A stretch of DNA of 64,000 bases from an uncultured Candidatus Saccharibacteria bacterium (GCA_964399075.1 CAYNPK010000001.1:160961-224960), one strand, 5' to 3'; shown: positions 36,471 through 47,819, counted from the first letter of the stretch. Notes: generated by a model not told the origin, from the sequence alone. Numbers and translations are program-made.

Positions 36471-37481
36471 ATGAACAAAGAAAAACCGCCAGTAGTAGCA
36501 TATTTAGCGATCTTGGGAAGATTTACTTTACTTCCAGGAATTCAACAGATCAAAATTGGGGAATTCGGTATTGATTGCTTAATACGATATTCCTTTGCAG
36601 AACATATCATAGATGAAAAGAAAAATATAAAAGTTCCTACTGAAGACTGTACGATCTTTTCAATTGAACATAAAAATTACAAAAGAGAGGATTTGAACAA
36701 GTCACAAAAAGTCGATGAAGTCCTTGAAAAATCACTCATAGCAATTAGCGAACTGTCACTTTGGTCAAAATCGAAAGAACAAGTCGGTAAAATTTCTAGT
36801 TATATAAGACAAGTAGGTAGATCAGACGTTAAATATTTTTTTGTTGAGATATCAGATGACTCATTAATTGAGTGGAAAAATGGATCCTATTGGCAAAGTC
36901 TTAAGGGGTTCCAAATTTTAAGCGGTTTTCTAAGTAACATGGTTGTAACAAATGGACCATCGCAAAATCCAACACCATCAGCCACGAGAAGAATCCTTAG
37001 CTGTTTAGACTTAATTAATCTTGGTTTTTATTCAGATGCCTTCATTACTGCTTTTGCATTATTAGATGATTTAACACAAGAAGTCTTGAAGGCAGGTTTT
37101 GAAAAAAAGAAATTATCGTTAAAAGAACAAAAAAATATTCTTAGGGGTATTACAGAAGATAGGTTAGCAAACTTCTTAACCAGTATATTAAAATTATGCG
37201 ATTGGGTGAGTCTTGAAAAAGAAAACGAAAAACTATTTAAAAAGCTGAAAAAGATTAATACAAAAAGAAATGACATAATGCATGGCTCAGTAAGATTAAC
37301 TAGAAATACTGCAATTGAATACATTGATATAATATTAGAAATCCTCTCTTTTTTAAGGCAAAATCCATTTGATTACACAATTGAAGAATTCCCAACTTTG
37401 AAACTCATTGAACCAGAGTATCTGAAACTATCAAATCTCGAAAAAGGCGAATCACCCGCAAACATGACCGATTATACTTAG
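36471..37481 (+). CDS. hypothetical protein with C-terminal HEPN-like Rx4HG motif
   Basis: AT-rich (~30% GC) orphan gene; KRNDIMHGS near the C-terminus fits the HEPN Rx4-6H signature; rest unassigned. Confidence 0.35.
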   Translation: MNKEKPPVVAYLAILGRFTLLPGIQQIKIGEFGIDCLIRYSFAEHIIDEKKNIKVPTEDCTIFSIEHKNYKREDLNKSQKVDEVLEKSLIAISELSLWSKSKEQVGKISSYIRQVGRSDVKYFFVEISDDSLIEWKNGSYWQSLKGFQILSGFLSNMVVTNGPSQNPTPSATRRILSCLDLINLGFYSDAFITAFALLDDLTQEVLKAGFEKKKLSLKEQKNILRGITEDRLANFLTSILKLCDWVSLEKENEKLFKKLKKINTKRNDIMHGSVRLTRNTAIEYIDIILEILSFLRQNPFDYTIEEFPTLKLIEPEYLKLSNLEKGESPANMTDYT

Positions 37482-37738
37482 ACGTTATGTGAAATTATTT
37501 TTTATTTTATGGGAATACAGTTTAGTAAAGAAAATCAATATGGCGCGTTAGTTGGACTTATAGTATTCATTATTTTCCTACTAATTTTACTTTTTTAACC
37601 ATTTTTATCGTCATTATTTGAATTAAAAAATTATGTTGCTTAACAGCCGATACGCAACATTTATTAAATGATCGCATGATCGGCAAATGTTATACATAAT
37701 CACGAACTTCAACCTTAAATATAAGAAATACTTAGGGC

Positions 37739-37766
37739 TTGACAAAAATTTACTAGGTGATATAAT
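37739..37766 (+). promoter_or_regulatory. consensus sigma70 promoter TTGACA-N16-TATAAT for the cold-shock gene
   Basis: Perfect hexamers, ~65-nt 5'UTR then AAAGGAGAAAAAG-ATG. Confidence 0.6.
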
Positions 37767-37834
37767 GGTAAAAGGTTCGTTCATTGTGGAATGGACGAAA
37801 AAAAGTGGGCCACTTCTCGCGAAAGGAGAAAAAG

Positions 37835-38233
37835 ATGGCCAAGAAGATGGGAATTGAGACCGGAACCGTGAAATCATTCTCTCCGCAGACCGGCTACGGC
37901 TTCTTCACTTCAGACGGCGATGGCGATGATGTCTACTTCCGCATCGGAATGATGCGCGAGGTCATGCAAGGGCACCGGGATAACCCCTACTTCGCGGGCA
38001 GAGACCGCGGAGGGGAAGTGTTGATTGGGATGCCGGTGCTCTTCCTCCGGGAGACGGAAGCTGGAGGGCGGACCTGGGCCAGGCTCTGGGGCGTTCGCCC
38101 CTTCTGGCATCAGGAACGGCGCCAGATCATCCCGATCGCTGACGCGGTCAAGATGATCGAGATGAGGGGGCGCTTGCCGGTGCAGAAGAAGGCGAAGGGA
38201 GAGGGAAGGAAGAGAAAGAAGGCCAGCGCCTGA
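37835..38233 (+). CDS. cold-shock-domain protein with ~70-aa Arg/Gly-rich C-terminal extension
   Basis: GTVKSFSPQTGYGFFTSDGDGDDVYFRIG resembles the CspA RNP1 region; ~60% GC versus ~38% flanks; start taken at MAKKMG after a strong RBS. Confidence 0.6.
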   Translation: MAKKMGIETGTVKSFSPQTGYGFFTSDGDGDDVYFRIGMMREVMQGHRDNPYFAGRDRGGEVLIGMPVLFLRETEAGGRTWARLWGVRPFWHQERRQIIPIADAVKMIEMRGRLPVQKKAKGEGRKRKKASA

Positions 38234-38276
38234 CACCCCCCTCGTCCCTCGCCCCTCCCCTGATCCGGCACAACCC

Positions 38277-38322
38277 CACCCAGCTAAGACTTGATAATCT
38301 TAGTTGGGTGGTTTTTTATTTG
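38277..38322 (+). terminator. rho-independent terminator
   Basis: 12-bp stem CACCCAGCTAAG/CTTAGTTGGGTG followed by GTTTTTTATTTG. Confidence 0.65.
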
Positions 38323-38356
38323 CCTAAAACGAGAGACTATGTTAACCTAACTTATT

Positions 38357-42264: not shown

Positions 42265-43563
42265 ATGAATTTTAAAGTTATTGGCGGTAAAAGTTTATCA
42301 GGAAGCATCACCACGCGCACGGCTAAGAATTCAGCCGTGGCTCTGCTCTGCGCCTCACTGTTAAACAAAGGGAAAACCACTCTCAAAAATATGCCGAAAA
42401 TTGAGGAGGTAAATAGACTAAACGAAGTCTTAAACAGTCTAGACGTTAAAACAATTTGGGAAAAAGATGATCTGACAATTATTCCTCCTACTAAACTTAA
42501 AATCAATAATTTAAATCAAGAAGCCGCGATTAAAACCAGAAGCGTCTTGATGATGCTGGGAGCTCTAGTCCACCACGCGCCAAACTTCAAATTACCTCAT
42601 TCTGGTGGTTGTAAACTCGGCACTAGAACTGTCCGCCCTCACTTATTTGCTCTAGAACAACTAGGGGTCTCAATAATTTCTCTTCACGACAACTATGAGG
42701 TTAAAGCAAAAAAATTGCGCCCAAACGAAATCGTCTTGTACGAAACCGGCGATACGGTGACGGAAAATGTGATTATCGCCGCCTCTTTGATTAAAGGCAA
42801 AACAATCATTAAATACGCTTCGGCTAATTACATGGTGCAAGATCTTTGTCATTATTTGAAATTATTAGGCGTCCAGATAGAAGGGATAGGCACCAGCACT
42901 CTGGTTATCCACGGACAACCAGGAATTAATCAAGATGTGGTCTTCCAAATGAGCGAGGACCCAATCGAGAGCATGCTCTTCATTGCTATTGCCGCTACCA
43001 CTAATTCCAGCATCACCATTCGTCGATGCCCGATTGATTTTCTAGAATTAGAATTGCTCAAACTTAAGAAAATGGGCTGGCGTTACCAAGTGTTAAAAAA
43101 ATACAAGAGCGAGAATAACTTTACCAATCTAGTAGACATCCTCACCAAACCAAGCAAACTTAAAGCACTGGAGGAAAAAATTCACCCCCTACCCTATCCC
43201 GGCATCAACATTGATAATCTGCCATTCTTTGTACCCATTGCCACGCAAGCGAGAGGAACAACCCTAATCCACGACTGGGTTTATGAAAATCGCGCGATTT
43301 ATTATCTGGAAATGGCCAAACTTGGCGCTAACATTATTTTAGCCGATCCGCATCGAGTAATTATTGAGGGGCCAACAGCTTTGCGTGCCACCGAAGTTAT
43401 TTGCCCACCGGCCTTGCGTCCGGCTGCTATTATTCTAATTGGCATGCTAGCGGCCAAAGACACTTCGCTATTGCGAAATGTTTACTCCATTAATCGTGGT
43501 TACGAAGATTTAGCCCAACGCCTAAACAAGCTCGGAGCACAAATTGAGGCTTTTGAAGATTAA
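42265..43563 (+). CDS. murA: UDP-N-acetylglucosamine 1-carboxyvinyltransferase
   Basis: EPT-fold, active-site loop HSGGCKLGTRTVRPH with catalytic Cys. Confidence 0.9.
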   Translation: MNFKVIGGKSLSGSITTRTAKNSAVALLCASLLNKGKTTLKNMPKIEEVNRLNEVLNSLDVKTIWEKDDLTIIPPTKLKINNLNQEAAIKTRSVLMMLGALVHHAPNFKLPHSGGCKLGTRTVRPHLFALEQLGVSIISLHDNYEVKAKKLRPNEIVLYETGDTVTENVIIAASLIKGKTIIKYASANYMVQDLCHYLKLLGVQIEGIGTSTLVIHGQPGINQDVVFQMSEDPIESMLFIAIAATTNSSITIRRCPIDFLELELLKLKKMGWRYQVLKKYKSENNFTNLVDILTKPSKLKALEEKIHPLPYPGINIDNLPFFVPIATQARGTTLIHDWVYENRAIYYLEMAKLGANIILADPHRVIIEGPTALRATEVICPPALRPAAIILIGMLAAKDTSLLRNVYSINRGYEDLAQRLNKLGAQIEAFED

Positions 43564-43567
43564 AAAA

Positions 43568-43639
43568 TGACCCTACCGGGAATCGAACCCGGATTACCGG
43601 CTTGAAAAGCCGATGTCCTAACCGTTAGACGATAGGGCC
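43568..43639 (-). tRNA. tRNA-Glu (TTC)
   Basis: Minus-strand GGCCCTA acceptor, anticodon loop TTTTCAA, GGGTTCGATTCCCGG T-arm. Confidence 0.8.
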
Positions 43640-43717
43640 AAAATACTCTAGGACTGCTTTAGTTTATAGCTTCTAGACCATTTTGGCAAATCAACGCAAA
43701 AATGCTAGCATATTTCT

Positions 43718-43807
43718 GGAGGGTTGGCAGAGTGGTCTAACGCGCCGCACTCGAAATGCGGTTGGGGAGCAATCCCCTCACAGGTTCAAATCCTGTACCC
43801 TCCGCCA
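43718..43807 (+). tRNA. tRNA-Ser (CGA), long variable arm, CCA encoded
   Basis: GGAGGGT acceptor, anticodon loop CTCGAAA, ~20-nt variable arm, terminal GCCA. Confidence 0.85.
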
Positions 43808-43811
43808 ATTT

Positions 43812-44630
43812 TTATAATGGACTTCTAATATTCTTCAACTTGGGATTTGTCACTTGTGTATAAATTTGAGTTGTACGAATGTTTGAGTGTCCAAGTAATT
43901 CTTGCACATAACGAACGTCAGTTCCGTTTTCCAATAAATGTGTCGCAAACGAATGCCTAAGTGAATGAAAAGTTGCAGGTTTACTGATCTTTGCTTTGGC
44001 TAAACTTTTTCTAAATACTTTTTGCAAAGATGTTGTTGTCAATTTCCCACCACGATTTGAGCCAAAGAGAAACTCATTCGTATTTTTACCAGCCACAACG
44101 TTTCGCAAAGCATCTTGCAACTTTTCAGGCAAGACGCTAATTCTGTCTTTTTTACCTTTTGCCCCTTTGATATGTACCACGAGCTCATCGATATCCAAAT
44201 CAGCAACCTTGAGATCGACAACTTCGCTCACGCGCAAACCACAAGCATAACCAAGTGAAATCATCAGTCGATATTTTGTATTATCCGTTGTTTCAATAAT
44301 TTTCTCAATTTCCGCATGGGATAACACTATCGGTAACTTCTTACTCCTTTTAGCAAACTTCAAATCGATTTTTTGAGGATCTTTCAAAACTTCTGCATAC
44401 AAAAACTTAATTGCATTTAGGGCGAGGTTGATTGTTTGTGGAGACTGATTGCGTCTGTGTTTATCAAGCAAAAAATCCTCAAGCGCTTTTTGCTTATTTG
44501 TGATTCCCCTTTCTTTCGAAAAATTGATATACTCTTTTATGTAGAGCAAATAGGCTTTACATGTTTTAGGCGAATAGTTACGTAAACGCAACGCACGATC
44601 AGTTTTATCTAAAACATTTTCCATATTCAA
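43812..44630 (-). CDS. tyrosine site-specific recombinase (phage-integrase / Xer-like)
   Basis: Catalytic box HSLRHSFATHLLENGTDVRYVQELLGHSNIRTTQIYTQV; its stop is 5 nt from the tRNA-Ser 3' end. Confidence 0.85.
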   Translation of the reverse strand: MNMENVLDKTDRALRLRNYSPKTCKAYLLYIKEYINFSKERGITNKQKALEDFLLDKHRRNQSPQTINLALNAIKFLYAEVLKDPQKIDLKFAKRSKKLPIVLSHAEIEKIIETTDNTKYRLMISLGYACGLRVSEVVDLKVADLDIDELVVHIKGAKGKKDRISVLPEKLQDALRNVVAGKNTNEFLFGSNRGGKLTTTSLQKVFRKSLAKAKISKPATFHSLRHSFATHLLENGTDVRYVQELLGHSNIRTTQIYTQVTNPKLKNIRSPL

Positions 44631-44700
44631 AGAATAGCGAAAGTTTGTATAATATACAAGAATTTGTTACAATACGAATGGAAAAGTTAGATAATAACCA

Positions 44701-44727
44701 GTTAGCCGACATATTTTGACGGCAATT
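44701..44727. repeat. left copy of 27-bp inverted repeat bracketing the racemase gene
   Basis: GTTAGCCGACATATTTTGACGGCAATT; reverse complement of 45480-45506 matches at 25 of 27 positions. Confidence 0.7.
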
Positions 44728-44770
44728 TAAAACCAAAGATTTAAAAACTTTTATTTTAAAACAATAAATT

Positions 44771-45460
44771 ATGAAAACAGTAGGAATAATTGGAGGTCTC
44801 GGACCTGAAACAACATCGGAATTTTACCTCGATATAATTTTTTCGTGTCAAAAAAAAGACAGAAGTAGCAGGCCATCTATCATAATCGCCAGCGTTCCTT
44901 TGCCTTATGCAATCGAAGATGAAGCTATATCAAAAAATATTGGGATTGAAAGAATAGCACCTTTCTTAGTTGCAGAGGCAAAGAGACTAGAAAAAGCTGG
45001 CGCTGATTTCTTAGTCATGCCATGCAATTCTCTTCATGTTTTTATCAAAGAAATCAGGAACGCTGTCGATATCCCTGTTTTAAGCATTATTGAAGAAACG
45101 GTAAAATTCCTCAAGACAAATAATTTGAATAAGGTTGGCATAGTATCAACTTCTGCGACGATTCAGAATAAATTATATGAAACTGCATTTGAAAAAAACG
45201 GGATTATTTATGTAACGCCAGATGCTTTCCAACAGGCAAAAATGGGGAAATTTATTCTGAATCTTGTTACTGGTCAACAAAAAAATCGTGACAGAGAAGA
45301 CCTTATTCAAATTATTAATGACTTCGAGAAAAAAGATGTAGATTGTGTTGCACTTGCTTGCACCGACCTCCAATTATTAATTCCTAAACATCCACGATTA
45401 AAAATATTCGACACAATGAAGATACTTGCGGATGCGACTGTTGAGGAGATATTGAAATAA
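44771..45460 (+). CDS. aspartate/glutamate racemase family protein
   Basis: MKTVGIIGGLGPETT N-terminus and two-Cys racemase fold (PCNSLH, ACTDLQ), 229 aa. Confidence 0.8.
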   Translation: MKTVGIIGGLGPETTSEFYLDIIFSCQKKDRSSRPSIIIASVPLPYAIEDEAISKNIGIERIAPFLVAEAKRLEKAGADFLVMPCNSLHVFIKEIRNAVDIPVLSIIEETVKFLKTNNLNKVGIVSTSATIQNKLYETAFEKNGIIYVTPDAFQQAKMGKFILNLVTGQQKNRDREDLIQIINDFEKKDVDCVALACTDLQLLIPKHPRLKIFDTMKILADATVEEILK

Positions 45461-45479
45461 AAGTTTTTAAAATATTGAA

Positions 45480-45506
45480 AATTGCCGTCAAAATACGACG
45501 GCTAAC
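45480..45506. repeat. right copy of 27-bp inverted repeat bracketing the racemase gene
   Basis: AATTGCCGTCAAAATACGACGGCTAAC; contains an internal perfect hairpin GCCGTC-N7-GACGGC. Confidence 0.7.
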
Positions 45507-45612
45507 AGCGTGTATGCGGTTCCGCTTCGCTCCGCCCATATCGCTATCGCGACATCGCATACACGCGTACGTTGTCCGCAATTCCGCTCCGCTCCATTGC
45601 GGATGTCGCACC
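45507..45612. repeat. GC-rich repeat-dense element (nested inverted repeats and direct repeats)
   Basis: GCGTGTATGCG...CGCATACACGC (11-bp IR), CCGCAAT...ATTGCGG, CCGCCCAT...ATGGGCGG, and direct repeats TTCCGCTTCGCTCCGCC / TTCCGCTCCGCTCCATT. Confidence 0.5.
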
Positions 45613-45640
45613 TTGCAAATGGGCGGGAATGTGATATAAT
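45613..45640 (+). promoter_or_regulatory. sigma70 promoter TTGCAA-N16-TATAAT
   Basis: Hexamers read directly, ~70 nt upstream of the 167-aa gene. Confidence 0.55.
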
Positions 45641-45712
45641 GCACTTTTTCGCCACTATCAAGCACGATCGTGGTGGATAAAATAAAAAATTTTATTCTTT
45701 AATTTATACACT

Positions 45713-46216
45713 ATGGAAAACTTTGAGAACAAAGAAAATTTCGCCACTAATACTTTACAGAAACAGCTTATCGATGCAGGTATTGACACTTCTATGTGGG
45801 GCACTGGTCAAGCCAAAACATTAGCGAATCTCCAGAAAGAGATTGAGAGTGGCGAAACTGTTTTAATTACCGGCGAGACTGGTGAATTGTTGAGGAGAGT
45901 TATTGTTGGAGGTGCTGATATCTATTATCAATCGCCAAATGGTAAAAAATATCGCCTGAGAGAAGACCGACAGGTTTTTAAAGATGGACGAGAACGACGC
46001 AGAGATTTAGAGCAAGCTGTTTCTGAAAAAATGAAGCCGGACGAAGACCCCAAAGACGCCATGATCCGTGGGATACAAGAAGAGTTAGGTCTCGGTGACG
46101 AAATTAATTTAACCGAAATGGGAACAGACACACAGCGAGTTACTTCCCCAAGTTATCCTGGATTAGAGTCTGAATATATTCGTCACAAATTCCAAGCAAC
46201 ACTCGTAGATAAATAA
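45713..46216 (+). CDS. NUDIX-like hydrolase (diverged Nudix box)
   Basis: SEKMKPDEDPKDAMIRGIQEELGL parallels the Nudix box GxxxxxExxxxxxxREuxEExGu, with the first Glu of REx2EE replaced by Gly. Confidence 0.4.
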   Translation: MENFENKENFATNTLQKQLIDAGIDTSMWGTGQAKTLANLQKEIESGETVLITGETGELLRRVIVGGADIYYQSPNGKKYRLREDRQVFKDGRERRRDLEQAVSEKMKPDEDPKDAMIRGIQEELGLGDEINLTEMGTDTQRVTSPSYPGLESEYIRHKFQATLVDK

Positions 46217-46574
46217 TTTAATCCTAAAGGATATGTAGAGGAACAATCTAATAAAAGTACATATTTTGTCTGGGAGGAAATAGAATAAATTATGGGAATA
46301 AAATTTACAAATTAACTTAGAGGCAATAGGTTAATTTTTCCCAAATTAAAATCAGAATATAAAAAAGTAGGTTGAAATAAAAAAAGGAGAGCTTCTCGTA
46401 GCTCTCCCTAGGATCAGATTTTGGGGACGATAATGCAGATGCACGGCCCATAGGCCCTAGCCCATCCAATCCTTAGATATATTTAAGCAAATAACTAATC
46501 AGATTGCAAGAGGTTTTTGTCACCTTGTTTTTTCGGCTTGAAATGATAAAATCGAGAGATAACTTTTGGTTTTA

Positions 46575-46647
46575 GGGCGGTTAGCTCAGTTGGTAGAGCG
46601 TTTCTTTGACGTAGAAAAGGTCACAGGTTCGAATCCTGTACCGCCCA
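46575..46647 (+). tRNA. tRNA-Val (GAC)
   Basis: GGGCGGT acceptor, anticodon loop TTGACGT, GGTTCGAATCC T-arm. Confidence 0.85.
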
Positions 46648-46652
46648 CTCGG

Positions 46653-47819
46653 ATGAAAATTCTAGCAATCGAGACTAGTTGTGACGAAACCGCCGTAAGC
46701 GTGATCAACGCTCAAGGTGGCTTAAATAGGCCCAAATTTGAGATTCTTGCCCACTTGGTGGCCTCTCAAGCGGACTTACACGCCCCCTACGGTGGCGTAG
46801 TCCCCTCTCTAGCGAAACGAGAACACGGAAGAAATTTAATCCCCTTATTGATAGCGGCTCTTAAGCAAGCAAAATTAACCAACCCAGGATCTCGTCAGCG
46901 TGATAATCTAACTATCGGCCTAGCCGAACAAGTCCGTCAAATTTTCGATCATGAGTCTGAACTATTAGAAAGGTTTTTGACGGTGATTCCTGGAATCAAA
47001 GCGCCAGCGATTGACCTGCTGGCGGTAACTCAAGGGCCGGGACTGGAACCAGCCTTGTGGACCGGCATCAACTTTGCTCGCGCCCTCTCTCTGGTTTGGA
47101 ATATTCCTCTCTTACCAATTAATCATCTGGAGGGGCACGCCTTAGCGGTTCTAAATAATAATCACAAAATAAATTTTCCGGCGTTAGTTTTATTAATTTC
47201 CGGCGGTCACACTCAACTTGTTTTGATGAAAGATTGGCTTAGGTATCAAACCATCGGCGAAACTAGAGATGATGCTGCCGGTGAAGCCTTCGACAAAGTG
47301 GCAAGAATTCTCGACCTCCCCTACCCCGGCGGACCACAAATTGCCCGCCTCGCTTCCTTGGGTACACCCAAGGAAGCTTATCGTCTACCGCGACCGATGA
47401 TTAACACTAACGATTTTGATTTTTCTTTCTCCGGTCTTAAGACAGCAGCGCTTTATTTAGTAAAAAAAATCCAACCTCTGACGCAAATTACTAAAACCGA
47501 AATTGCTTACGAATTCCAACAAGCGGTGATTGATGTTCTAATTCACAAAACTCTCCAAGCGGTGAAGCGCTACCAACCTAAGACCTTAATTGTTGGTGGT
47601 GGGGTGGCTAACAATGTTGAACTAGGCAAACAGTTGGAACGCAAATTGACTCAAGAATATCCGAAGACTACCCTACTCCTGCCAACGCCAGACTTAAGCA
47701 CTGATAACGCCACGATGATCGCCATCGCTGCTTATTGTCGCTCTCTCAAATATCCAAAAACTAAAACGCAAAAAAAGTCGCCAACCATAGTGGCACGAGG
47801 CACCCTACCCCTTAAATAA
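46653..47819 (+). CDS. tsaD: tRNA N6-adenosine threonylcarbamoyltransferase TsaD (Kae1/Gcp family)
   Basis: ILAIETSCDETAVS, HLEGHALA, SGGHTQL, GGVANNVEL motifs; the track ORF start lies inside tRNA-Val, so the real start is MKIL. Confidence 0.85.
   Translation: MKILAIETSCDETAVSVINAQGGLNRPKFEILAHLVASQADLHAPYGGVVPSLAKREHGRNLIPLLIAALKQAKLTNPGSRQRDNLTIGLAEQVRQIFDHESELLERFLTVIPGIKAPAIDLLAVTQGPGLEPALWTGINFARALSLVWNIPLLPINHLEGHALAVLNNNHKINFPALVLLISGGHTQLVLMKDWLRYQTIGETRDDAAGEAFDKVARILDLPYPGGPQIARLASLGTPKEAYRLPRPMINTNDFDFSFSGLKTAALYLVKKIQPLTQITKTEIAYEFQQAVIDVLIHKTLQAVKRYQPKTLIVGGGVANNVELGKQLERKLTQEYPKTTLLLPTPDLSTDNATMIAIAAYCRSLKYPKTKTQKKSPTIVARGTLPLK

Follow-up and report, generated by a model that had tools for sequence, protein, structure and literature searches.

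The locus considered here raises the question of why a single gene should be enclosed by inverted repeats beside a gene for a tyrosine recombinase, and whether the enclosed gene is a mobile cassette. It occupies positions 43,568 to 46,216 of a stretch of 64,000 nucleotides (nt), hereafter the window, from an uncultured Candidatus Saccharibacteria bacterium (GCA_964399075.1, CAYNPK010000001.1:160961-224960). A preliminary description drew attention to a recombinase gene adjacent to tRNA-Ser and divergent from a gene for an Asp/Glu-type racemase, to near-perfect 27-bp inverted repeats around the latter, and to a GC-rich, repeat-dense element behind it. It offered as explanations a cassette-capturing unit, a unit of the miniature inverted-repeat transposable element (MITE) type or a long-range mRNA stem enclosing the racemase gene. 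In the light of the analysis reported here, the locus is very probably a small integron-like platform, in which a mobile racemase gene cassette occupies an attI-like site beside the gene for a short recombinase resembling the integron integrases (IntI).

In integrons, opening of a circular cassette takes place at G↓TT (the arrow marks the crossover) within the attC site, so that the start of the linear cassette complements the R'' box at its own 3' end. A corresponding course of events is proposed for the window. The recombinase, of 272 amino acids (aa), would be transcribed divergently from an attI-like site with its crossover at G44701↓T44702, where one intact cassette, composed of the racemase open reading frame (ORF) and a structured attC-like site of approximately 90 nt, would have been inserted. 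In the free circular cassette, R'' (...GGCTAAC), a GC-rich inner stem and apex, and R' (GTTAGCC...) would together form one long imperfect hairpin site, and recombination with attI at G↓TT would open the circle inside that site. R' would then stand at the 5' end of the cassette, and R'' with the GC-rich core at its 3' end, because the crossover at G↓TT linearised the cassette.

The inverted repeat and GC-rich element

The inverted repeat (44701-44727 and 45480-45506) matched at 25 of 27 positions, and no match was obtained in 100 dinucleotide shuffles. It proved longer than first described: a repeat search extended it to 28 nt at 93%, and a second pair of arms (44740-44759 and 45452-45471) matched over 20 nt at 95%. 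The racemase gene is enclosed by an interrupted inverted repeat of approximately 55-59 nt per arm, the right arm overlapping the racemase stop codon. Coordinates given in the preliminary description were displaced by about 1 nt. The GC-rich element (45507-45610) had a G+C content of 0.57, compared with 0.44 for the window, and contained the nested inverted and direct repeats attributed to it, namely an inner inverted repeat of 18 nt that was 83% complementary (45508-45525 and 45549-45566) and a direct repeat of 23 nt at 78% (45511-45533 and 45573-45595). It folded better than shuffled sequences (z = -3.1).

No further copies of the 27-mer, the extended arms, the GC-rich element or the tRNA-Ser 3' end were present within the 64-kb window. 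The lack of other copies there, together with the lack of a target-site duplication, argues against a MITE-like unit. Uniqueness of the repeat, together with a recombinase-free locus elsewhere, had been named in advance as an observation that would count against mobility; the 27-mer was indeed unique within the window, but the class of site to which it belongs was massively recurrent and was found in dozens of genomes.

The attI-like junction

Eighty related loci were obtained from species-representative genomes, mostly of phyla belonging to the Candidate Phyla Radiation (CPR), with one labelled Pacearchaeota. In approximately 65 of the 80, the 70 or so nt before the recombinase start codon were conserved and ended at ..ATAAAAACCA↓GTTRnnnGAAAT (also written ..ATAAaAAC.A↓GTT), beyond which the sequences of different loci were unrelated. 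The recombinase gene is thus adjoined upstream by a G↓TT insertion site, as is required of attI. Base frequencies to the right of G↓TT were equal at attI and attC junctions and those to the left differed, as expected if recombination exchanges right halves. Many related contigs stop approximately 200 nt upstream of the recombinase start, which suggests a repeated or variable region at that point. The 3' flank of the recombinase gene was wholly unconserved among the loci, its neighbours including tsaD, ruvC, lepA and uvrC.

In the window, a promoter-like sequence, TTCAAA-16-TATAAT (44626-44653, plus strand), faces the array and matches the consensus pattern only. In the proposed platform, cassettes would be expressed from a promoter near attI. 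A perfect palindrome, TTGTATA-T-TATACAA (TTGTATATTATACAA, 44648-44662), overlaps the -35 element of the likely recombinase promoter (TTGTAT-17-TATTCT, minus strand) and is kept as TTGTATGTTATGCAA in most related loci; it is possibly an operator, with a parallel in the LexA boxes of intI promoters.

The attC-like sites and their arrays

The 12-mer GTTRnnnGAAAT recurred on the outward strand upstream of the recombinase, 30-140 nt before successive ORFs, and was three- to fourfold enriched in this position and direction compared with the opposite strand or the opposite side. The sites have a common order: R'' (ACATCnnnYAAC), A, the first arm (12 nt) of a stem, a variable hairpin, CCCAAATT, a small hairpin, AACTTC, the second arm of the stem and RAAC↓GTT, where GTT begins the R' of the next unit. 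The window matches this architecture base for base at 45493-45584, with R'', A, the inner stem S1 (45508-45519 and 45555-45566), an apex containing TTCCGCTTCGCTCC and CCCATAT, GTAC, G45571↓TT and the next R'. The idea of a cassette-capturing unit is supported, with two amendments to how its parts had been seen. The 27-bp repeats are read as the two arms, R' and R'', of one attC-like site, not as the termini of a unit, and the GC-rich block as the inner stem and apex of that site, not as a separate element, its second half (45571-45608) belonging to the next unit.

A covariance model, R1, was made from an alignment of 11 sequences and used to search 672 kb on both strands. It yielded 88 matches at an expectation value (E) of 1 or less, of which 70 had E<0.01 and lay in 36 loci. 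Polarity was strict: matches in the loci were all upstream of the recombinase and on the opposite strand (174 kb searched), with none in 342 kb downstream. For the window site, E was 7e-14 over the 672 kb and 4e-16 with the filters switched off. Compensatory changes were observed at 7 of the 12 pairs of S1 among the 11 sites. When 74 distinct sites were aligned, 94.5% of the cells were paired, 10 of the 12 pairs exhibited double changes, and the covariation score was 0.64, as against 0.155 for shuffles and at most 0.08 with the partners slid, a score to be read with the caveat that the 74-site alignment was fitted to R1.

The median distance between sites was 809 nt, for which the 870 nt of cassette 1 in the window are a typical value. 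Intervals usually held one ORF, and the longest ORF faced away from the recombinase in 61 of 70. The ORFs of the arrays were functionally unrelated, encoding isochorismatase, NUDIX proteins, methyltransferases, Mrr, an ABC transporter, LysE, deaminases and domains of unknown function. Up to four sites (E<0.01) were present per locus in the 5 kb fetched.

A second palindromic element, GTTTTGrrr..ATTCACCCCT(TT)AA(TT)CCCCTCT..yyyCAAAAC, was observed within arrays, often just 5' of an attC-like site. It occurred in loci L016, L018, L022, L047, L077 and L083 (2-4 kb upstream of the recombinase), in L185 (4745-4785) and in L186 (3327-3375). GC-rich hairpins related to this element follow the recombinase stop codon in L005, L006, L008, L015 and L022.

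Complementarity of cassette ends and folding of the site

Of 69 cassettes defined by the model, 29 had an R'' whose four variable positions all complemented the start of the same cassette, compared with a mean of 3.4 and a maximum of 11 in 1000 shuffles; these counts are reduced by about 10 loci in which the junction motif sets the junction at the wrong place. An independent test based on motifs gave 18 of 96 against 4.0. In the window, GTTAGCCGACAT pairs with ACGACGGCTAAC, both being part of the 27-bp repeats. The likeness of GTTAGCC and GGCTAAC to the core and inverse-core sites of integrons, remarked upon in the preliminary description, has been borne out by the junctions, the R'/R'' complementarity, the R1 site and the breakpoints considered below.

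When the site of the circular cassette was reconstituted by joining the 3' end, through G45571, to T44702, it folded as one long hairpin. Free energies as single-stranded DNA were -38.9 kcal/mol for the top strand and -44.2 kcal/mol for the bottom strand, with z of about -8 to -9. The R box is 12 nt long and contains two conserved mismatches (ACATC opposite GAAAT). By analogy with integrons, we infer that the site is used as a folded single strand and not as a duplex. Cassettes would move as circles, with the adjoining recombinase as the probable catalyst.

Cassette exchange in natural populations

Two populations offered groups of contigs that share a backbone and differ in their cassettes. 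The first comprised ten contigs from different samples carrying an identical 270-aa recombinase (P0076), with a backbone, consisting of the recombinase gene and 5 kb downstream, that was 99.94-100% identical. The recombinase gene was preceded by 76 nt that were likewise identical, up to ...CAGATAAAAACCA. Immediately after ACCA↓GTT, four different first cassettes were present, among them two different methyltransferases and a creatininase, and every first cassette whose end was on the contig terminated in a site detected by R1. Two contigs had a common first cassette (99.7% identity) and diverged after it.

The second population was represented by four contigs, including L185 and L186, with backbones approximately 99% identical. 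The first cassette encoded a restriction-modification system (a helix-turn-helix protein, a MamI-type endonuclease and a methylase) in one variant and a Fic-like protein in the other. The left breakpoint was attI, ..TAATAAC(T/G)A↓GTT, and the right breakpoint was the cassette's own attC, ..AAC↓GTTAGGCGAAAT. Behind both variants lay the same next cassette, an 82%-identical homologue of the NUDIX-like gene of the window. Cassettes are replaced exactly at G↓TT in otherwise identical natural genomes. The alternative occupancy sought for the genome of the window was seen only as these swaps in related populations; three assemblies of the source genome were identical at the locus.

The recombinase

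The recombinase gave a PF00589 match of E=2e-43 in addition to the PF13495 N-terminal domain. Its top NCBIfam match was TIGR02249, the integron integrase, at 224.8 bits in two stretches, against a cut-off of 265. Scores with the Xer equivalogs were all below their cut-offs (XerA_Arch 216.3 against 220, XerD 188 against 330, XerC 188 against 335 and XerS 80 against 267). The top match in the PDB was VchIntIA (2A3V; E=2e-46, phmmer), in two pieces that skip IntI residues of about 211-241, the region of the IntI-specific insertion. Foldseek, run on an AlphaFold2 model, placed 2A3V first, in an alignment of 323 columns for a query of 271 residues, and XerA second. The model was moderate (predicted local distance difference test score 73, predicted template modelling score 0.52) and served for fold ranking only. 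Classification of the recombinase, which the preliminary description had called for, therefore places IntI as the best match, albeit below its cut-off, with the Xer models also below theirs. As judged from its sequence, the enzyme is integron-integrase-like or Xer-like and resembles IntI more than it does XerC, XerD or XerS.

At E<=1e-20 the search gave more than 7,700 homologues, of which the best 120 were approximately 270 aa in length and 81-88% identical, and came from many CPR lineages (Kerfeld-, Vogel-, Gracili-, Morani- and Paceibacterota, and others). Identity of this order across CPR lineages appears too high for vertical descent and points to horizontal spread. Judged by its homologues alone, the genome of the window is probably that of a CPR (Patescibacteria) bacterium. 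The exact integrase sequence was not on record elsewhere. A phage origin was considered and is unlikely, since relatives of the recombinase were absent from the viral contigs searched.

Alternative explanations

A whole gene flanked by inverted repeats beside a tyrosine recombinase, with promoter-like sequences outside both arms, could also be an inverton, in which the recombinase would invert the racemase segment between the 27-bp repeats and so switch its expression relative to the outside promoters. That the locus is a phase switch of this kind is extremely improbable: a single orientation was present in the three assemblies, the differences within related populations are cassette replacements and not inversions, the would-be overlap regions beside the arms differ (TAACCAG and CAGCGTG), and R'/R'' pairs at other loci lie between 13 nt and 2.9 kb apart, in every case with one polarity. 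Scarcely more credible is an explanation at the level of RNA or of generic elements, by which the arms would form a stem in the untranslated regions (UTRs) that stabilises the racemase mRNA, and the GC-rich repeats would be terminator-like or akin to repetitive extragenic palindromic (REP) sequences. Sites are found upstream of this recombinase family only and in one orientation (70 against 0), and haplotype breakpoints fall exactly at G↓TT. An Rfam scan of 43400-46800 (E<=1) returned three tRNAs only, the canonical attC model not being an Rfam entry. To the credit of such an explanation, the portion 45484-45502 of the right arm has the score of a minus-strand, terminator-like hairpin, S1 holds a conserved G-U-compatible pair, and parts of the arms are conserved with the racemase in recombinase-free contexts. 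The mRNA stem originally suggested may exist as a side effect, since these parts of the arms travel with the racemase in recombinase-free genomes, but it leaves the arrays and the population polymorphism unexplained.

Two further explanations, each very unlikely, start from the recombinase itself. It could be the single dimer-resolution enzyme of the genome, with the upstream site a dif site, as in xerS-difSL, and the cassettes elements that exploit Xer. The XerA, XerD and XerC models nearly equal the IntI score, the recombinase gene adjoins its site with one copy seen per locus, and some loci have a partial palindrome with a spacer of 7 nt at the attI junction, e.g. TTCGTATAA-AAACCAG-TTGTACGAA in L007 and L011. 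Against this, every Xer equivalog score is below its cut-off, and no switch in GC skew was observed, C exceeding G throughout the window with no consistent change in 25 loci. Ordered arrays of structured R''-stem-R' sites (up to four per 5 kb) are foreign to dif-integrated elements, and 81-88% identity between members of different CPR phyla speaks for horizontal spread and against a vertically inherited housekeeping gene. Mechanistically, this account overlaps with that of the integron-like platform, in that both are cassette capture at a recombinase-adjacent site. Alternatively, the integrase could move the whole 2.8-kb island at tRNA-Ser, with the racemase and NUDIX-like genes as passive cargo. 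The integrase gene abuts the tRNA-Ser 3' end, the island is of low G+C content and lies between two tRNAs, and a convergent tRNA was present less than 300 nt past the recombinase stop codon in 19 of 81 loci, approximately 17 times the expectation from tRNA density. Ten of the 21 tRNAs at recombinase 3' ends were tRNA-Ser. A direct repeat of the tRNA-Ser 3' end is nevertheless absent at the far boundary, where there is only a T-arm likeness to an intact tRNA-Val; most loci lack a tRNA and have tsaD, ruvC, lepA, uvrC or other genes after the recombinase; and the arrays, the R'/R'' logic and breakpoints at attI instead of the tRNA are left unexplained. The integron-like platform may itself be mobile and target tRNA genes in addition to capturing cassettes, and the tRNA and tsaD neighbours suggest that it integrates at preferred places. 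The gene tsaD was repeatedly observed adjoining the platform (the window, L021, L044, L051 and L068).

Several observations weigh against an integron-like platform. Only one site was detectable in the array of the window; a second behind the NUDIX-like gene was not found even with the filters switched off. For the window, in which the three assemblies are identical, direct observation gave neither a circular cassette nor an empty attI nor a product of recombination. The sites, at 90-210 nt, are larger than canonical attC and differ from it in their conserved motifs (CCCAAATT, AACTTC and RAAC before GTT), in the 12-nt R box with its two conserved mismatches and in spacer geometry, the R box being 1 nt from the inner stem, compared with 4 nt in the canonical site (by eye). 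Signals as to the strand used were mixed: the R'/R'' mismatches favour the bottom strand, whereas a G-T pair conserved in S1 points to the top strand or to RNA. The recombinase falls below the curated IntI cut-offs (for PRK15417, 147.8 against 435) and, at 272 aa compared with 320 for VchIntIA, is without the IntI-specific additional domain of about 35-40 aa. Finally, recombinase-free homologues of the racemase gene, 84-88% identical, keep parts of both repeat arms, including the inner left arm; the long arms may also serve the racemase gene or its mRNA, because these homologues keep parts of them.

Comparison with known systems

The platform resembles integrons (IntI with attI and attC, whether sedentary chromosomal, class 1-type or archaeal; Ghaly et al. 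2022, PMC9668308) in that the recombinase gene is divergent from its adjoining site, the crossover is at G↓TT and the cassettes mostly contain a single ORF facing away from the recombinase. Each cassette ends in an imperfect palindrome with ...YAAC (R''), GTT... (R') and an inner stem, and its start complements its own R''. The cargo genes are varied and unrelated to one another, cassette content varies between near-identical genomes, and IntI is the best match in both sequence and structure. It differs from integrons in the recombinase, of approximately 270 aa, below cut-off and without the IntI-specific domain, as well as in its CPR hosts, its frequent position beside a tRNA gene and its short arrays. 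In a passage of PMC9668308 that cites Messier & Roy 2001, the additional domain of IntI is described as diagnostic and as required for attC recombination.

Other systems share some of these properties. As in the single-recombinase systems XerS/difSL, XerH/difH and the archaeal XerA/dif, and in elements that integrate at dif, a short Xer-like recombinase lies beside its own site, the attI core is partly palindromic and foreign DNA accumulates. The platform is not at a skew-defined terminus, its sites are of a hairpin type and arrayed, and its recombinase is nearer to IntI. The pdif modules of Acinetobacter plasmids consist of genes flanked by inversely oriented 28-bp duplex XerC/XerD sites, in alternating orientation and without an adjoining dedicated recombinase gene. 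In them, too, inverted repeats resembling recombinase sites bracket one gene or a small set of genes, whereas here the sites have one orientation and the inverted repeat arises from one split hairpin site. Integrative islands that target tRNA genes also have an integrase gene convergent on a tRNA 3' end and a low G+C content; unlike them, the platform has no attL/attR direct repeat, and its variation is located at the site upstream of the recombinase.

Taken together, these comparisons incline us, without great confidence, towards regarding the platform as a distinct and previously unrecognised class of integron, with a short IntI/Xer-like recombinase that lacks a supposedly indispensable domain, its own attC architecture, horizontal spread over most CPR phyla and possibly DPANN archaea, and cross-domain cassette exchange. 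Such a class could represent either the ancestral state of integrons, with a Xer-like enzyme and hairpin sites that predate acquisition of the insertion, or an independent invention of the same logic. Published cassette arrays with this recombinase in CPR bacteria were not found in the searchable literature, although this does not prove them new. Both the definition of integrons and the search for them rely on the IntI-specific domain and the canonical attC model, so a cassette system free of that domain would escape such tools. In a 2026 survey, 97.4% of contigs encoding 'integron-type' recombinases were not called as complete integrons, and attC detection was suspected as the limit (PMC13323075). 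The recombinase family described here offers a concrete example.

If functional, the platform would extend cassette-based gene capture to ultrasmall, host-dependent CPR bacteria and would give their reduced genomes a hotspot for accessory enzymes, restriction-modification systems and toxins. It would also constitute a natural test of the need for the IntI insertion in hairpin-site recombination and a new compact pair of recombinase and site for genetic tools, and would bear on the evolution of integrons from Xer-like recombinases, a question posed in PMC4792948.

Cargo genes and ORF-less hairpin units

The racemase has more than 2,000 homologues, the best 120 of which were 80-100% identical and derived from CPR bacteria as well as Woesearchaeota/Nanoarchaeota, among others. 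The exact racemase sequence was present only on three contigs, each 100% identical to the window. Homologues also occurred with the recombinase absent, among housekeeping neighbours in archaeal-type contexts (RadA, ribosomal protein S2 and aminoacyl-tRNA synthetases). The racemase gene is either highly mobile or highly conserved. The racemases of the window and of contigs L084-L094, which are labelled Woesearchaeota and bear archaeal hallmarks (RadA, archaeal-type aminoacyl-tRNA synthetases), were 84-88% identical, and a cross-domain transfer of the racemase gene with part of its flanking repeat is apparent from this comparison.

A second unit starts at 45572 with a short hairpin bearing the loop TCCGCTCCGCTCC, followed by a promoter-like site and the NUDIX-like gene. 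The match of the ORF as called (45713-46216) to NUDIX is weak (E=9e-4, below the Pfam cut-off). In the preliminary description this gene was placed behind a strong promoter. A promoter-like site is present, as part of a block, TGGGCGGGAAwGTGrTATAAT, common to the window and L020, but the gene does not end where it was called: a TAA at codon 168 replaces Gln of homologues of 191-192 aa, and the next 23 codons are conserved to 46288. The nonsense mutation is probably recent and the gene in the course of being lost. In L185 and L186, the 82%-identical NUDIX-like gene forms a genuine cassette, having an R' of its own and an attC-like site that scores 76 bits, and that of the window reads as a decaying terminal cassette whose attC has gone.

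ORF-less hairpin units were observed directly after the attI junction in 10 of 60 loci (L006, L008, L020, L022, L035, L043, L045, L048, L056 and L068). Their 12-nt stems, GTTxxxxxAAAT and ATTTxxxxxAAY, are variable, and a 13-nt loop, TYCGCTYCGCTYC, was conserved in 7 of the 10 and in the window. The same loop motif is found in the apex of some attC-like sites, for example those of the window and L185. These units could represent cassettes that have collapsed or are empty, or else an element with a function of its own.

Layout of the locus and minor observations

Coordinates of the features are given in Table 1. The adjacency of tRNA-Ser to the recombinase gene, and the divergence of the latter from the racemase gene across a 70-nt intergenic block, were as first described. 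To the left of tRNA-Ser lie a tRNA-Glu (minus strand) and a murA-like gene and, to the right of tRNA-Val, tsaD; an AT-rich spacer of 360 nt separates the NUDIX-like ORF from tRNA-Val. The island (43.8-46.6 kb) has a G+C content of 0.33-0.38, compared with 0.44 for the window. A metagenome scan with MurA for a recombinase-free version of the locus found none, yielding relatives of at most 70% identity in which synteny was not conserved.

Table 1. Features of the integron-like locus (positions in the window; +, plus strand; -, minus strand).
Feature	Position	Strand	Basis and remarks
tRNA-Ser(cga)	43718-43807	+	ARAGORN; Rfam 54 bits; convergent with the recombinase gene, 4 nt from its stop codon
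Tyrosine recombinase ORF, 272 aa	43812-44630	-	PF00589 and PF13495
Recombinase-proximal conserved block	44631-44701	not assigned	Recombinase promoter region and attI-like left half-site ..AGATAATAACCA, ending at G44701
Putative attI-like crossover G↓TT	44701-44702	+	Divergence point of identical-backbone contigs in two populations
Putative cassette 1, 870 nt: R' arm, racemase ORF and attC-like site	44702-45571	+	Limits: attI G↓TT and the G↓TT ending the covariance-model match
Left inverted-repeat arm	44701-44759	+	R' GTTAGCCGACAT (44701-44712) and extension into the racemase 5' UTR
Asp/Glu-type amino-acid racemase, 229 aa (cassette cargo)	44771-45460	+	PF01177 (E=1e-37), TIGR00035
Right inverted-repeat arm	45452-45506	+	Ends in R'' ACGACGGCTAAC (45495-45506), complementary to R' of its own cassette
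attC-like site as placed in the array	45493-45584	+	Covariance model R1, 74.6 bits
Short hairpin unit GTTGTCCGCAAT-TCCGCTCCGCTCC-ATTGCGGATGTC, loop conserved	45571-45608	+	
Promoter-like TTGCAA-16-TATAAT, TG upstream	45613-45640	+	Pattern match
NUDIX-like gene, cargo of second, apparently decaying cassette	45713-46288 (ORF as called 45713-46216)	+	In-frame TAA at codon 168
tRNA-Val(gac)	46575-46648	+	Distal edge of low-GC island; T-arm 21/22 identical to that of tRNA-Ser

The tRNA-Ser and tRNA-Val genes that bracket the low-GC island share the T-arm TCACAGGTTCrAATCCTGTACC (43778-43799 and 46621-46642), which is absent from the other eight tRNAs of the window. The likeness could be due to chance or gene conversion, or could be a trace of the arrival of the platform. 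A strong terminator-like hairpin (10 pairs and a T-run) lies on the minus strand at 46384-46409, between the NUDIX-like gene and tRNA-Val, with no convincing minus-strand gene seen upstream of it.

A possible orphan mini-cassette was observed at 37485-38325, 7 kb from the recombinase. It starts with AC↓GTTATGTGAAAT, a 12-mer of the R' type, directly after the stop codon of an ORF at 36471-37481, and continues with a hydrophobic ORF of 29 codons and a weak R1 match (37631-37702; 29 bits, E=0.003) ending in AAAT↓GTTATACATAAT. This match is followed by a perfect TTGACA-17-TATAAT promoter (37739-37767) and a GC-rich (approximately 60%) ORF of 149 aa with a cold-shock-like N-terminus (37784-38233), and the unit ends in a hairpin-T terminator.

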